A stretch of DNA of 48,128 bases from a virus (lineage: Duplodnaviria; Heunggongvirae; Uroviricota; Caudoviricetes), in IMG/VR virus record IMGVR_UViG_2529292716_000011. One strand, given 5' to 3'. Made by a program: the position numbers and the translations under genes. This document shows positions 36,169 to 45,159 of the stretch, piece by piece. The notes beneath the pieces are model-generated. The model had not been told where the DNA came from. It did not search any database and was given only the letters and a program-made list of their open reading frames with translations. Numbering within the stretch: the stretch's first letter is position 1; every line of letters begins with the position of its first letter.

Positions 36169-36558
36169 CCAATTTTTTACGTACGTAAACCACTAAATGA
36201 TATTTGCGAGAATGCTACCGAGTATTGAAAACACCACTACAAATACATAAGCAAATCCCAACAAATAACCAACAAATAATTTCCAGTGTTATTTTTAGCC
36301 GGTTTAAATTGAACCTTCAAATTATAGAGCACTTATAAATAACAGCCGTTAATATAAATTGGCTAATAGATTTATTTTTATTCAGTCAAGAGCCATGAAT
36401 AGGATTCGATAGAAAAAAGTTCAGATAAAAATAGAGATCTACTTCACAAATCAAACGAGAAACCAAAACTTACATCTTGAAATAATCACATTGATTAGAT
36501 GAATATTTATCGCGCAATGACATCATTTTTTAATAATAGTTCAAAAAAAGGGCTCACG

Positions 36559-37641
36559 ATGAAAAAATTAACAGTGGCAATTTCTGCTGTAGCTGCATCA
36601 GTACTGATGGCGATGTCTGCTCAGGCAGCTGAAATTTATAATAAAGACAGTAACAAGCTGGATCTGTACGGGAAAGTTAATGCTAAGCACTACTTCTCCT
36701 CTAATGATGCAGATGATGGTGATACTACTTATGCCCGTCTTGGCTTCAAAGGTGAAACCCAAATCAACGATCAACTGACTGGTTTCGGTCAGTGGGAATA
36801 TGAATTCAAAGGCAACCGCGCTGAATCTCAAGGTTCCTCCAAAGATAAAACCCGTCTTGCCTTCGCTGGCCTGAAATTCGGTGACTACGGCTCCATCGAT
36901 TACGGCCGTAACTACGGTGTAGCATACGACATCGGTGCGTGGACTGACGTCCTGCCAGAATTCGGTGGTGACACTTGGACTCAAACAGATGTGTTCATGA
37001 CTGGTCGCACCACTGGTGTTGCAACTTATCGTAACAACGACTTCTTTGGTCTGGTTGATGGTCTGAACTTTGCTGCTCAGTATCAGGGTAAAAATGACCG
37101 CACTGACGTAACTGAAGCTAATGGTGATGGTTTCGGTTTCTCCACTACTTATGAGTATGAAGGATTCGGTGTAGGTGCAACCTATGCTAAATCTGACCGC
37201 ACTAATAATCAGGTTATCTACGGTAACAACAGCCTGAATGCATCTGGTCAAAATGCTGAAGTATGGGCAGCTGGTCTGAAATATGATGCGAACAACATCT
37301 ATCTGGCTACCACCTATTCTGAAACCCAGAACATGACTGTTTTTGGTAATAACCATATTGCCAACAAAGCACAAAACTTCGAAGTAGTTGCACAATATCA
37401 GTTCGACTTCGGTCTGCGTCCGTCCGTTGCTTACCTGCAATCTAAAGGAAAAGACTTGGGTGCGTGGGGTGATCAGGACCTGGTTGAATATATTGATGTA
37501 GGTGCAACCTATTACTTCAACAAAAATATGTCCACTTTTGTTGATTACAAAATCAACCTGATTGATAAGAGCGATTTCACGAAAGCATCTGGCGTTGCTA
37601 CCGATGATATCGTTGCTGTAGGTATGGTTTACCAGTTCTAA
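36559..37641 (+). CDS. nmpC: outer-membrane general porin (NmpC/OmpD-like), intact
   Basis: Start at [23 protein letters not shown]; porin translation with C-terminal aromatic residue; sits between Q and the lysis cassette on the opposite strand as in DLP12. Confidence 0.85.
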
Positions 37642-39085: not shown

Positions 39086-39248
39086 GATTCCTCCTTGCTG
39101 CCAGTCGCAACCATTTTTTATCAACCAGGCTAGCGGTATATCCGAGCAGTGTTGGTATTTCGGATGGCTTCAGCTCAGGCTTACGCTTACGACGATTTGA
39201 TACTCTGTAGATGTGCCCGTTCATGACACGAATAAGCGGTGTAGCCAT
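39078..39248 (-). CDS. ninE: NinE-like small protein
   Basis: 56-codon ORF below the ORF-track threshold, translated by hand ([56 protein letters not shown]); overlaps the ninB stop (TAATG) and the ybcO start. Confidence 0.6.
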   Translation of the reverse strand: MATPLIRVMNGHIYRVSNRRKRKPELKPSEIPTLLGYTASLVDKKWLRLAARRNHG

Positions 39249-39703
39249 TACGCCTCCTGCTTATCGCGCAGCTGCTGGTATTCACAGCTCTGCGGAATTG
39301 TCAGGTGGCAGCCGATATTCATCGCCCAGGCTTCGACTTTGCACAGGAAGATGTACATCTCGCCGGTTTCCAGCTCTGACGTATGGCGGAGGGATTGGAC
39401 GGTGGTGACCTCGCCGGACACGACATCTACACGGTCTTTGCTTTCGTAGCCGAGATAGGTGTGCTTCATCGCGTCTTTGACCCACTCAGGCGTAGCGAAG
39501 GTCTTGCCGCGGGCGATGAGATATTCGCTGATCTCCGTGTACCACATGTGGCTGAGCGCGTTCTGCGACAGGCTGCGCTTCTCGCGCCACGGCTTAACCT
39601 GCAGGCGTAAGCATTGCCCGGCATCCAGCAATGGCTGAATCTGCTGGCCGATGGCCGCGAAGTTACCGCGATGGAGTTTGATGCCGTCTACTGGCAGAGT
39701 CAT
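39248..39703 (-). CDS. ninB: NinB/YbcN-family recombination protein
   Basis: 151 aa; NinB-like motif RSLSQNALSHMW. Confidence 0.8.
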   Translation of the reverse strand: MTLPVDGIKLHRGNFAAIGQQIQPLLDAGQCLRLQVKPWREKRSLSQNALSHMWYTEISEYLIARGKTFATPEWVKDAMKHTYLGYESKDRVDVVSGEVTTVQSLRHTSELETGEMYIFLCKVEAWAMNIGCHLTIPQSCEYQQLRDKQEA

Positions 39704-39967
39704 ACGGCCTCCCTAACGGAAACCGCAGAATGCAGAAAATCGCAGGTGCATTTCTGCATCTGTGACAAGGTGATGAGTTCAGATTGTGGTCGCATTTAAG
39801 TCCCCTTAAATGCGCAGAAGTCACCGGAGTTGTTCAGGCTCCGATGAGAGGATTATGGCGGATTGATTACGATAAATCAAAACTATCTTGAAGCCAAAAC
39901 AGTGATCTTCGCTTTAAAAACCTTGTATACTTTCACCTAATCACAGCCAGAACTATGGATCTAACCA

Positions 39968-40345
39968 ATGACCAACAAAGAAAACAAAGATAAATATATT
40001 AACAAGTTCAAGAAAGAGCTTTCAAAATATATACAACCAACTGCTGGAGTGGACATTCAATTATTTAACTCTAAGGATGGTGGTGGTGTAATTAAAGCCA
40101 CTTTGAATAGAAGTGGAAAAAGAAAATCATCTATTGCTGGTAATTTTACTAAATTAGGTGAGGCAATTACCTCGAGTGGGCAGAGGGTTTTTGGTGGTGA
40201 TCTATCAAATGTGAATTTTTACGGAACAAATACGATTTTTGATGGAGATACAATATTTTTAATTAAATCACCTGATTCAGAGGAGTGGTCATCACAAAAA
40301 GCTTCCAAAGACGTAGAGGGCATCGTATTTGGAGGGAAAAAATGA
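39968..40345 (+). CDS. hypothetical soluble protein (125 aa), AT-rich
   Basis: Lys-rich; no signal peptide or TM; no family recognised; opposite strand to the nin genes. Confidence 0.55.
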   Translation: MTNKENKDKYINKFKKELSKYIQPTAGVDIQLFNSKDGGGVIKATLNRSGKRKSSIAGNFTKLGEAITSSGQRVFGGDLSNVNFYGTNTIFDGDTIFLIKSPDSEEWSSQKASKDVEGIVFGGKK

Positions 40346-40427
40346 TTAACATTACTACTAAGGATGCACTCAAGTCAGTGGTGAAGTAAGAGATCTAGTA
40401 ATTCTTCTTGAAACTGATGGAAAAACG

Positions 40428-40769
40428 GTGTCTGATTATTTGCAGCCAATCCCTCCCAAAAAAGATACACACTGGAGCATGATTTTCATTCCGGTAGCAA
40501 TTTATATACTACTTAATCTTGTATACATTATTGCTCACCCATTATTTCCTGAAAAATATCTAAAAACATCAACATCTATATTTCTATTCATTTCCTTCAT
40601 ATTAAGTGCAATAGTAGCATATTTTGTTTTCCATAAGCATAAATCTGCCACTCTATCCATATGCAGCTTAGTGTTCTTAGTGTTAATTGTAGGTGCTAAC
40701 GTAGGGTTTATCAGTTACAGCGACCTAACACAAAAAGCGACGCAAAAATTAGATAGTTTGTCTAAATAA
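40428..40769 (+). CDS. hypothetical small membrane protein (about 3 TM), AT-rich
   Basis: ORF begins at GTG 40428; a better start is ATG 40479 preceded by GGAG; three hydrophobic helices. Confidence 0.5.
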   Translation: MSDYLQPIPPKKDTHWSMIFIPVAIYILLNLVYIIAHPLFPEKYLKTSTSIFLFISFILSAIVAYFVFHKHKSATLSICSLVFLVLIVGANVGFISYSDLTQKATQKLDSLSK

Positions 40770-41208
40770 TTATGTTGCCATGCGAAGTATGCATGGCTGC
40801 ATGTCTGCCTTCCATTTAAAATGGGCTAAGACCTATAACCCTAAATATTATTCTTTATTATCTTCTTTACCACTTCGGTGATGCTGCCAACTTACTGATT
40901 TAGTGTATGATGGTGTTTTTGAGGTGCTCCAGTGGCTTCTGTTTCTATCAGCTGTCCCTCCTGTTCAGCTACTGACGGGGTGGTGCGTAACGGCAAAAGC
41001 ACTGCCGGACATCAGCGCTATCTCTGCTCTCACTGCCGTAAAACATGGCAACTGCAGTTCACTTACACCGCTTCTCAACCCGGTACGCACCAGAAAATCA
41101 TTGATATTGTCAGCGCCAGTGATATAAGACGGTAATTCGCCATTTGGATTGTCCGCTCCACCCAACATGTTGTTTCCTTAAGGTTCTCACACCAGAAAGG
41201 ACATCAAC

Positions 41209-43178
<1,970 letters not shown>

Positions 43179-43259
43179 CGAAAGTATTTAGCGGGCATGA
43201 AAATGGCAAATAACGGTCAAACATCGTGGCGTTGACAATATGGCCATGAATGGCGTTGG

Positions 43260-43763
43260 ATGCCGGGCAACTGCACGCATTATGGGCGTTGGCCTCAACA
43301 CGATTTTACGTCACTTAAAAAACTCAGGCCGCAGTCGGTAACCTCGCGCATACAGCCGGGCAGTGACGTCATCGTCTGCGCGGAAATGGACGAACAGTGG
43401 GGCTATGTCGGGGCTAAATCGCGCCAGCGCTGGCTGTTTTACGCGTATGACAGTCTCCGGAAGACGGTTGTTGCGCACGTATTCGGTGAACGCACTATGG
43501 CGACGCTGGGGCGTCTTATGAGCCTGCTGTCACCCTTTGACGTGGTGATATGGATGACGGATGGCTGGCCGCTGTATGAATCCCGCCTGAAGGGAAAGCT
43601 GCACGTAATCAGCAAGCGATATACGCAGCGAATTGAGCGGCATAACCTGAATCTGAGGCAGCACCTGACACGGCTGGGACGGAAGTCGCTGTCGTTCTCA
43701 AAATCGGTGGAGCTGCATGACAAAGTCATCGGGCATTATCTGAACATAAAACACTATCAATAA
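43260..43763 (+). CDS. insB: IS1 InsB frame of interrupted copy 3
   Basis: 167 aa, one substitution relative to copy 1. Confidence 0.85.
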
Positions 43764-43911
43764 GTTGGAGTCATTACCCGCTTGCAGTAACGGCGAAAGG
43801 GGCAATGACAGCGCTGCCATGTCGACAAGAACTGGAATAGTGAGAAGTAAACGGCGAAGTCGCTCTTATCTCTAAATAGGACGTGAATTTTTTAACGACA
43901 GGTAGGTAATT

Positions 43912-45159
43912 ATGGCACTGAATATTCCATTCAGAAATGCGTACTATCGTTTTGCATCCAGTTACTCATTTCTCTTTTTTATTTCCTGGTCGCTGTGGTG
44001 GTCGTTATACGCTATTTGGCTGAAAGGACATCTAGGGTTGACAGGGACGGAATTAGGTACACTTTATTCGGTCAACCAGTTTACCAGCATTCTATTTATG
44101 ATGTTCTACGGCATCGTTCAGGATAAACTCGGTCTGAAGAAACCGCTCATCTGGTGTATGAGTTTCATCCTGGTCTTGACCGGACCGTTTATGATTTACG
44201 TTTATGAACCGTTACTGCAAAGCAATTTTTCTGTAGGTCTAATTCTGGGAGCGCTCTTTTTTGGCCTGGGGTATCTGGCGGGATGCGGTTTGCTTGACAG
44301 CTTCACCGAAAAAATGGCGCGAAATTTTCATTTCGAATATGGAACAGCGCGCGCCTGGGGATCTTTTGGCTATGCTATTGGCGCGTTCTTTGCCGGCATA
44401 TTTTTTAGTATCAGTCCCCATATCAACTTCTGGTTGGTCTCGCTATTTGGCGCTGTATTTATGATGATCAACATGTGTTTTAAAGATAAGGATCACCAGT
44501 GCGTAGCGGCGGATGCGGGAGGGGTAAAAAAAGAGGATTTTATCGCAGTTTTCAAGGATCGAAACTTCTGGGTTTTCGTCATATTTATTGTGGGGACGTG
44601 GTCTTTCTATAACATTTTTGATCAACAACTTTTTCCTGTCTTTTATGCAGGTTTATTCGAATCACACGATGTAGGAACGCGCCTGTATGGTTATCTCAAC
44701 TCATTCCAGGTGGTACTCGAAGCGCTATGCATGGCGATTATTCCTTTCTTTGTGAATCGGGTAGGGCCAAAAAATGCATTACTTATCGGTGTTGTGATTA
44801 TGGCGTTGCGTATCCTTTCCTGCGCGCTGTTCGTTAACCCCTGGATTATTTCATTAGTGAAGCTGTTACATGCCATTGAGGTTCCACTTTGTGTCATATC
44901 CGTCTTCAAATACAGCGTGGCAAATTTTGATAAGCGCCTGTCGTCGACGATCTTTCTGATTGGTTTTCAAATTGCCAGTTCGCTTGGGATTGTGCTGCTT
45001 TCAACGCCGACTGGGATACTCTTTGACCACGCAGGCTACCAGACAGTTTTCTTCGCAATTTCGGGTATTGTCTGCCTAATGTTGCTATTTGGCATTTTCT
45101 TCCTGAGTAAAAAACGCGAGCAAATAGTTATGGAAACGCCTGTACCTTCAGCAATATAG
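43912..45159 (+). CDS. cscB: sucrose:proton symporter CscB (oligosaccharide/H+ symporter, LacY family)
   Basis: 415 aa, 12-TM MFS permease; translation recognised as CscB from memory; no cscK/cscA/cscR nearby. Confidence 0.8.
   Translation: MALNIPFRNAYYRFASSYSFLFFISWSLWWSLYAIWLKGHLGLTGTELGTLYSVNQFTSILFMMFYGIVQDKLGLKKPLIWCMSFILVLTGPFMIYVYEPLLQSNFSVGLILGALFFGLGYLAGCGLLDSFTEKMARNFHFEYGTARAWGSFGYAIGAFFAGIFFSISPHINFWLVSLFGAVFMMINMCFKDKDHQCVAADAGGVKKEDFIAVFKDRNFWVFVIFIVGTWSFYNIFDQQLFPVFYAGLFESHDVGTRLYGYLNSFQVVLEALCMAIIPFFVNRVGPKNALLIGVVIMALRILSCALFVNPWIISLVKLLHAIEVPLCVISVFKYSVANFDKRLSSTIFLIGFQIASSLGIVLLSTPTGILFDHAGYQTVFFAISGIVCLMLLFGIFFLSKKREQIVMETPVPSAI

Follow-up and report, generated by a model that had tools for sequence, protein, structure and literature searches.

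A frameshifted two-gene cassette between P and ninB of a DLP12-like prophage belongs to a widespread, unannotated gene pair with a possible role in phage conflict

Gene content and decay of the cassette

We analyzed a 48,128-nucleotide stretch of viral DNA (IMG/VR record IMGVR_UViG_2529292716_000011, hereafter the window), which carries a prophage of the DLP12-like lambdoid type. The subject of this study is a cassette of two plus-strand genes, encoding a soluble protein and a small membrane protein, that lies next to ninB in this prophage. An earlier reading of the sequence (the original prediction) had proposed the cassette as a candidate undescribed exclusion module. Its features are listed below, with coordinates of the window.

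39902-39931, plus strand: promoter-like region containing a conserved motif
39968-40345, plus strand: gene 1, an intact open reading frame (ORF) for a Lys-rich, soluble protein of 125 amino acids (aa)
40342-40769, plus strand: gene 2, a frameshifted pseudogene, defined by alignment with uropathogenic Escherichia coli (UPEC) 536
40771-40803, plus strand: conserved hairpin directly after the gene 2 stop, with the stem GCCATGC...GCATGGC at 40777-40797

Several elements of the original prediction were confirmed at this locus. The first ORF is the 125-aa Lys-rich plus-strand gene that it described, the cassette lies upstream of ninB on the strand opposite the nin, Q, and lysis genes, and it is more AT-rich than its surroundings, with a G+C content of 32-38% compared with 50-59% in the flanking phage and insertion sequence (IS) DNA. 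The gene 1 protein contains no hydrophobic segment and corresponds to WP_000182282.1 (125 aa), which the NCBI annotation names a hypothetical protein in UPEC 536 and other strains. The exact window protein is extremely common across public assemblies, and a 110-aa partial copy with 100% identity carries the label Shigella sonnei.

The second ORF was only partly described correctly. Its three hydrophobic helices are indeed present in the window, but the gene as drawn is the remnant of a frameshifted gene of 142 aa. In UPEC 536 and others the intact gene 2 product is WP_000608370.1 (142 aa, hypothetical protein), and its ATG overlaps the gene 1 stop codon (ATGA; position 40342 in the window). 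Compared with UPEC 536, one G is missing after 40365 in the window, changing GGATGGCAC to GGATGCAC, and the true frame ends after 15 codons at a stop at 40387-40389, leaving a stub at 40342-40389. The 113-aa ORF that follows (from GTG, 40428-40769) corresponds to residues 30-142 of the intact protein. Among 15 relatives, no part of protein 2 is better conserved than the 36 N-terminal residues that were lost (MINITTKDGTQVSGEV.DL.ILLE..GK.VSDYLQP).

In its intact form, protein 2 consists of this conserved N-terminal domain of about 36 aa, three transmembrane (TM) helices, and a C-terminal helix. The N-terminal domain is acidic, and a basic loop precedes TM3; applying the positive-inside rule to the homologue sequences, we infer that both face the cytoplasm. 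The AlphaFold2 (AF2) model of protein 2, with a mean predicted local distance difference test (pLDDT) score of 74, showed a small N-terminal domain of a beta-hairpin plus a helix, followed by three long helices.

Public records that share the arrangement on the right of the window, in which an IS1 split by an IS21-family element adjoins a cscB-like gene, carry no gene 2 call, and a related record with IS1 and cscB but without the IS21 element still has the 142-aa gene 2, indicating that the frameshift is a lineage-specific decay. With gene 2 frameshifted, this copy of the cassette is probably non-functional; given that damage to the putative effector gene and the truncation of the prophage by IS1, the module is most likely inactive in the window. 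In this genome the cassette is therefore a relic, with its prophage beheaded by IS1. IS-driven decay of this kind is typical of Shigella-type genomes. The reverse decay is seen in E. coli CV839-06 (L002, 6169-7026), where an IS1 lies within gene 1 and the 142-aa gene 2 is annotated as intact.

The two genes form an obligate unit across many phyla

A profile search with nine gene 1 sequences against 1.84 billion cluster representatives returned 111 relatives (E <= 1e-3), nearly all of them 120-135 aa long. The family, of about 125 aa, is marked by the motif F.GTN...I.LIK[DG]....EW...A..D[VI], and an alignment of 68 relatives showed the conserved elements Y.N.FR at the N-terminus, F.GTN, I.LIK[DG], EW, and A..D[VI]. 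Word-indexed homologue searches yielded relatives from Enterobacteriaceae only, every one of them named hypothetical. When genomes were scanned with a profile built from a 17-sequence sub-alignment, relatives of gene 1 were found in Deltaproteobacteria, Acidobacteriota, Synechococcus (Cyanobacteria), Desulfobacterota, Myxococcota, Betaproteobacteria, Gemmatimonadota, and Bacteroidota (Bacteroides, Flavobacterium, and Mariniflexile), a spread over at least eight phyla. They also occur on metagenome and viral contigs, and three further IMG/VR viral contigs carry the module.

The partner gene was found with gene 1 almost without exception. In the enterobacterial prophage loci examined, both genes were always present, with a start/stop overlap of 4 nt (or 1 nt). 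Among the 16 genome loci that include the gene 1 stop and downstream sequence, 15 had a homologous partner of 117-154 aa after gene 1, joined by the 4-nt ATGA overlap in 12 of these 15. The partners share the N-terminal consensus MK.G..EG..EE[VI][KR]D[LF]...GL.L..Y[IL]E.P and the same anatomy, namely an N-terminal domain, three hydrophobic helices with a Q[LI]RFK-type loop before the third, and a C-terminal helix. Co-occurrence of the pair in other genomes, which the original prediction had set beforehand as a condition for its reading, was likewise found in metagenome and viral loci: a hidden Markov model of the partner detected a gene 2 homologue directly downstream in 75 of the 76 loci with at least 330 nt of sequence after gene 1. 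An all-against-all comparison of 260 neighboring proteins revealed no third conserved gene; the unit therefore consists of two genes. Two small coupled genes inherited together are also the layout of type II toxin-antitoxin loci. These results demonstrate that the pair is an obligate unit across many phyla. As a whole, the module comprises a promoter-like region, a cytoplasmic protein of about 125 aa, an inner-membrane protein of some 125-145 aa whose translation is coupled to it, and a conserved hairpin at the 3' end.

We then considered selection on the two genes. In pairwise Nei-Gojobori comparisons of diverged cassettes, limited to pairs with a synonymous divergence (dS) above 0.5, the ratio of nonsynonymous to synonymous divergence (dN/dS) was 0.07-0.11 for gene 1 and 0.07-0.13 for gene 2. 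Both genes are thus under purifying selection, and given these values and the conserved homologues, both ORFs are far beyond chance.

The cassette is a moron of the interval between P and ninB

A search of 5,426 complete E. coli genomes found the same DNA in 46 of them, at 99.6-99.7% identity. In intact E. coli prophages the gene order is a cI-type repressor, a cro-type helix-turn-helix gene, a YdaT-like gene, O, P, the cassette, ybcN/ninB, ninE, and onward to Q, with the cassette antisense to the pR operon and lying between P and ninB/ybcN. The original prediction had assigned the pair to the immunity-region slot next to cI, the position of rex; this placement was not upheld. The pair is conserved as a unit in other prophages, as had been anticipated, but not at the cI/rex position. 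The slot adjacent to cI lies about 3 kb from the cassette and is occupied by other cargo, for example a 353-aa protein with an ASCH protein, BstA (L006), a CbiA/AAA_31 protein, or a NYN protein.

Klebsiella- and Enterobacter-type prophages carry the pair at 66-92% identity, again antisense, with the final gene of the replication side on one flank and the first nin gene (NinB or DUF1367) on the other. The site is constant despite differing replication modules (O/P, DnaB-type, or IstB/DnaC-type), immunity regions, and nin genes. Related ybcN prophages without the cassette have variable small genes in the pR sense between P and ninB, among them a homologue of the DNA polymerase III theta subunit, ren, and ead/Ea22-like genes. 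The cassette thus combines atypical G+C content, conserved signals of its own, patchy presence, an orientation independent of the surrounding operon, and a variable interval as its site. It is a moron of the variable P-ninB interval, with a predicted promoter, and not an immunity-region module.

In one prophage (L008; GCA_030132385.1, 5665-7348 and 9850-10971), a 377-aa colicin-like gene (a weak Pfam match), facing a convergent colicin-immunity-like gene, is likewise found between the replication genes and ninB, with a DndB-like gene on the replication side. These genes show that the interval collects diverse cargo.

Expression signals of the cassette

Upstream of gene 1, a -10-like hexamer, TATACT, is located at 39926-39931, about 36 nt before the ATG. 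It aligns with TATGAT or TATAAT in cassettes whose coding dS exceeds 1 and in which the surrounding non-coding DNA has diverged. On the strength of this conservation, we infer that 39902-39931 contains the promoter of the cassette.

Directly downstream of gene 2, the hairpin stem GCCATGC(G)/(C)GCATGGC is kept in three cassettes (coding dS above 1), while its loop and flanks vary. Its folding energy was -16.6 kcal/mol in the window (z -3.35), -27.5 in L003 (z -6.9), and -22.7 in L008 (z -6.1), where the z scores compare each value with shuffled sequence. The hairpin at 40771-40803 marks the 3' boundary of the cassette and, judging from its conservation and folding, likely serves as a terminator or stabilizer of its transcript.

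Neither protein belongs to an annotated family

The original prediction had recognized no family for either protein, and the searches agreed with it. Neither protein gave a significant match in Pfam or NCBIfam, and neither gene 1 nor intact gene 2 had a match at E <= 1 among the 5,027 defense protein models of PADLOC-DB v2.0.0. Pfam scans revealed no family in common, either across 68 diverse relatives of gene 1 or across 17 of gene 2, and PDB sequence profile searches with both genes found nothing below E 0.02. Full-length matches were obtained only in PHROG, to phrog_18061 for gene 1 (E 9e-85) and phrog_16940 for intact gene 2 (E 2e-96); these are the same proteins clustered from prophage data, and both families carry no functional annotation. 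A match of protein 2 to 7TMR-DISM scored 22 bits against a cut-off of 29 and was discarded as hydrophobic-helix noise.

The structural models were similarly uninformative as to family. The AF2 model of protein 1 has an alpha-beta-beta-alpha-beta-beta-alpha order of elements, and that of protein 2 matched generic helical bundles only. No DNA-binding domain was recognizable in gene 1 by Pfam, PDB profile, or fold searches, which is a weak negative. In the literature, the WP accessions and PHROG identifiers were not mentioned, and the accessions were absent from the DefensePredictor supplements; no paper describing the family was found, with at least one relevant prophage defense screen (Brenes and Laub 2025) lying outside the search. 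The family is unannotated in every library searched.

Genomic contexts and alternative partners

Outside enterobacterial prophages, the pair was found inside restriction-modification operons. In an uncultured Bacteroides sp. (UMGS1534; L052, 3969-9919), it lies between type III mod and res, the four genes running on one strand with gaps of 35 and 94 nt. In a proteobacterial metagenome-assembled genome, it follows type I hsdM-hsdS directly, and on another contig hsdM/S lie 3 kb from the pair with an HNH gene close by. Among 150 neighboring proteins from 28 metagenome or viral loci, counted as plain tallies without a background control, we found AbiTii twice, C5 DNA methylases twice, PARIS AriA once, the PADLOC candidates PDC-S09, S15, S32, and HEC-01A, and three integrases. 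One prophage copy is placed between early and lysis genes. Other loci have plainly housekeeping neighbors. Taken together, these contexts are suggestive of a mobile conflict cassette.

The partner of the gene 1 domain is not always a gene 2 homologue. In P0104 (447 aa; L144/L145, 246-1589), a gene 1 domain at residues 1-120 is fused to an HNH nuclease domain related to McrA of E. coli (PDB 6ghc, E 2.6e-5; Pfam HNH). The C-terminal portion of P0104, about 200 aa, has no family assignment. In Microbulbifer yueqingensis (L012, 6380-6859), the one clear exception among the genome loci, the overlapping partner is unrelated to gene 2 and has one TM helix and a long coiled coil. This Microbulbifer pair adjoins a DUF4062 protein, an SNase-like nuclease, and resolvases. 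Because of the HNH fusion and the Microbulbifer partner, the gene 1 domain appears to pair with alternative effectors, and these few cases suggest that it may be a sensor or adaptor.

Interpretation of the cassette and alternative explanations

The observations above can be brought together in one explanation, to which we give an even chance: the window cassette is a decayed copy of an uncharacterized, horizontally mobile two-gene module, which would act as a lysogen-expressed conflict system with a membrane effector. In such a system, the resident prophage would express the module as a moron. Protein 1 could use its basic N-terminal helix to bind the acidic N-terminal domain of protein 2 in the cytoplasm, and the soluble protein would sense or gate the membrane protein, either holding or triggering it. 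Upon infection or loss of the partner, the membrane effector would compromise the inner membrane, and the outcome would be abortive infection or exclusion of the incoming phage. The effector would be swappable, either for a single-pass coiled-coil membrane protein or for an HNH nuclease. The original prediction's view of the cassette as a candidate undescribed module fits these results, since an unrecognized two-gene unit, its contexts, and one HNH fusion are consistent with a conflict or defense module.

A bolder form of this proposal seems to us possible, though we lean slightly against it. It holds that the pair founds a phylum-spanning anti-phage family of the abortive-infection type, combining a novel sensor or adaptor fold of about 125 aa with interchangeable effectors, and residing as a P-ninB moron in enterobacterial lambdoid prophages and nested in restriction-modification operons elsewhere. 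If the pair does act in defense, it would add two unannotated protein families in a compact module of about 0.8 kb, and it would be a new type of cargo for the lambdoid P-ninB interval, separate from the well-known slot adjacent to cI. The wide but patchy distribution, the nesting in restriction-modification loci, and the nuclease fusion render the module directly testable.

Several results weigh against a conflict system. No homology was found that links either protein to a function, and fold searches with the low-confidence model of protein 1 (pLDDT 58) returned generic matches only. The pair was not found in 50,697 isolated phage genomes (by DNA and tblastn searches) or in 72,556 plasmids. 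Many of its neighborhoods are of housekeeping type, including valyl-tRNA synthetase, a ClC channel, smc-zipA-ligA, AccA, and PlsX with fatty-acid synthesis genes. The HNH fusion is represented by one 50% cluster, on two short contigs from two assemblies. Of the expression signals, the TATACT hexamer was not called by a generic promoter scan, and the downstream hairpin has no U-tract.

The foremost alternative, which we consider unlikely, is a toxin-antitoxin (addiction) module in which gene 2 would be a membrane toxin and gene 1 its coupled antitoxin, the two stabilizing the DNA that carries them (a prophage or a restriction-modification locus) with no dedicated anti-phage role. The pair looks the part: it is self-contained, with the soluble gene upstream, a 4-nt overlap, variable and mobile contexts, and no third partner; the putative toxin is the gene that has decayed in the window, gene 1 remaining intact; and such pairs, too, are typically embedded in restriction-modification loci and prophages. 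On the other hand, the interrupted gene 1 and intact gene 2 of E. coli CV839-06 would be unexpected for an unneutralized toxin, an objection softened by the probable removal of the gene 2 promoter and of translational coupling by the same IS1. Gene 1 also has no recognizable DNA-binding antitoxin fold, and the fusion of its domain to an HNH nuclease is more like a sensor-effector arrangement. Toxin-antitoxin function and defense are in any case compatible and not mutually exclusive. An accessory pair with a role outside conflict (membrane stress, transport, signaling, or lysis timing) that hitch-hikes on mobile DNA is quite unlikely and stands behind the addiction module in our ranking. The many housekeeping neighborhoods would suit it, as would the absence of a match to defense models, the generic helical bundles matched by the protein 2 model, and the prophage copy close to lysis genes. 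It accords poorly with the patchy presence in complete E. coli genomes (46 of 5,426), with the atypical G+C relative to the flanks, with the embedding inside restriction-modification operons, and with the HNH fusion; the absence of copies from the isolated phage genomes searched also argues against a core phage function.

More doubtful again is superinfection exclusion at the inner membrane, in which DNA entry of incoming phages would be blocked without cell death, as with HK97 gp15, P22 SieA, and T4 Imm. A prophage moron with lysogen-type orientation and its own signals, encoding a small inner-membrane protein, would be a reasonable candidate for such an activity, and the prophage cargo nearby includes known exclusion or defense genes (BstA adjoining cI in L006). 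However, the module also occurs away from prophages (between mod and res, following hsdMS, and next to housekeeping genes), and a nuclease or another membrane protein can take the place of its membrane partner, favoring a generic effector over a phage-specific entry block. The classical entry blockers are not known to have a conserved cytoplasmic partner, which also counts against this explanation. Finally, the two ORFs might have been chance open frames in an AT-rich spacer, a suspicion raised by the fact that the second ORF as first drawn was not a complete gene. This was weak from the outset, AT-rich DNA having few stop-free frames, and it is refuted by the cross-phylum homologues, the dN/dS of 0.07-0.13, the conserved overlap, and the partner found in 75 of 76 loci; we regard its probability as negligible.

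Comparison with known two-gene systems

For a conflict system with a membrane effector, a Rex-like scheme of a soluble partner and a membrane effector expressed from the prophage offers, by analogy, the best available working model. As in lambda RexA/RexB, the pair is prophage-encoded, a soluble protein being followed by a small multi-pass inner-membrane protein, and is oriented against the rightward lytic operon. By the same analogy, expression in the lysogen would be plausible, and the proposed logic of a sensor and a membrane effector would be shared. The original prediction had emphasized this RexAB layout. The soluble-then-membrane order against pR held up, but the cI-adjacent site did not, and neither homology to RexA/RexB nor a fourth helix was found. 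In comparisons with the RexA and RexB sequences of phage SfI, hhalign gave probabilities of 0.03% for gene 1 against RexA and 1.4% for gene 2 against RexB. RexA is 279 aa long, in contrast to 125 aa for the soluble protein of the cassette, and RexB has four TM helices, whereas protein 2 has three and an N-terminal cytoplasmic domain. RexAB lies downstream of cI in the PRM transcript, whereas the cassette occupies the P-ninB interval and has a promoter-like region of its own. RexAB-type relatives include Pseudomonas putida PP_5643/5644 (PMC12894663). The cassette, unlike RexAB in this comparison, also occurs outside phages.

Three other systems bear a resemblance in arrangement. In mycobacteriophages Sbash and Butters, gp30 and gp31 are adjacent prophage-expressed cytoplasmic and membrane proteins that protect lysogens against heterotypic phages; their hosts are unrelated to those of the cassette, and so, probably, are the protein families. 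CptA(YgfX)/CptB(SdhE) is a type II-like toxin-antitoxin pair whose operon places the gene of a small soluble protein ahead of that of a small inner-membrane protein. It belongs to the chromosomal core, whereas the cassette is mobile and patchy, and the cassette proteins have no Pfam or NCBIfam homology to it. PrrC, in the type I prr locus, is an accessory defense gene embedded in a restriction-modification operon, an embedding that resembles that of the cassette relatives located between type III mod and res and after hsdM-hsdS. PrrC is an anticodon nuclease, in contrast to the putative membrane protein effector of the cassette, and the proteins are unrelated (no PADLOC match).

Flanking DNA in the window

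The features on either side of the cassette are as follows.

36499-37641, plus strand: OmpC/NmpC-like porin gene, an apparently intact ORF of 380 aa
37830-38228, minus strand: quuD (Q antiterminator)
39248-39703, minus strand: ninB/ybcN, the first nin-region gene and left neighbor of the cassette
40823-40841, minus strand: terminator-like hairpin with a T-run, 7 nt downstream of the P stop codon
40848-40876, minus strand: last 29 nt of the replication gene P; matches to intact prophages stop at 40877
40877-43778, plus strand: IS1 split by an IS21-family element, identified from the IS1 ends read in the sequence and from ORFs
41209-42381: istA of the IS21-family element, inside IS1
42378-43178: istB of the IS21-family element, inside IS1
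43912-45159: cscB-like sucrose/oligosaccharide permease gene of the major facilitator superfamily, adjoining IS1

To the right of the cassette, the 29 nt of the P 3' end are all that remains of the early (replication and immunity) region in the window, in agreement with the original prediction that little else was left of this DNA. From 40877 onward, IS1 stands in place of P, O, cII/cro/cI, and everything beyond. This junction points to a deletion mediated by IS1, through which the prophage became fused to unrelated chromosomal DNA. Two public chromosomes (L016 and L023) have the same IS1::IS21-cscB layout.

The position of the P stop codon was transferred from an intact prophage through the alignment with UPEC 536. 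By analogy with lambda, the hairpin at 40823-40841 might be a tR2-like site that shields the cassette from pR transcription. Two further terminator-like hairpins with T-runs lie on the minus strand at 39723-39758, just upstream of the ninB start, at a site that corresponds to tR2 in lambda; some E. coli records annotate a 32-aa ORF (WP_224922665.1) across them. The minus-strand hairpins at both places presumably recall the tR2 region of lambda.

To the left, the minus strand beyond ninB/ybcN also carries ninE, ybcO, rusA, and quuD. The porin gene at 36499-37641, which we take to be the classical porin moron of DLP12-type prophages, runs in the opposite direction to Q and the lysis genes.

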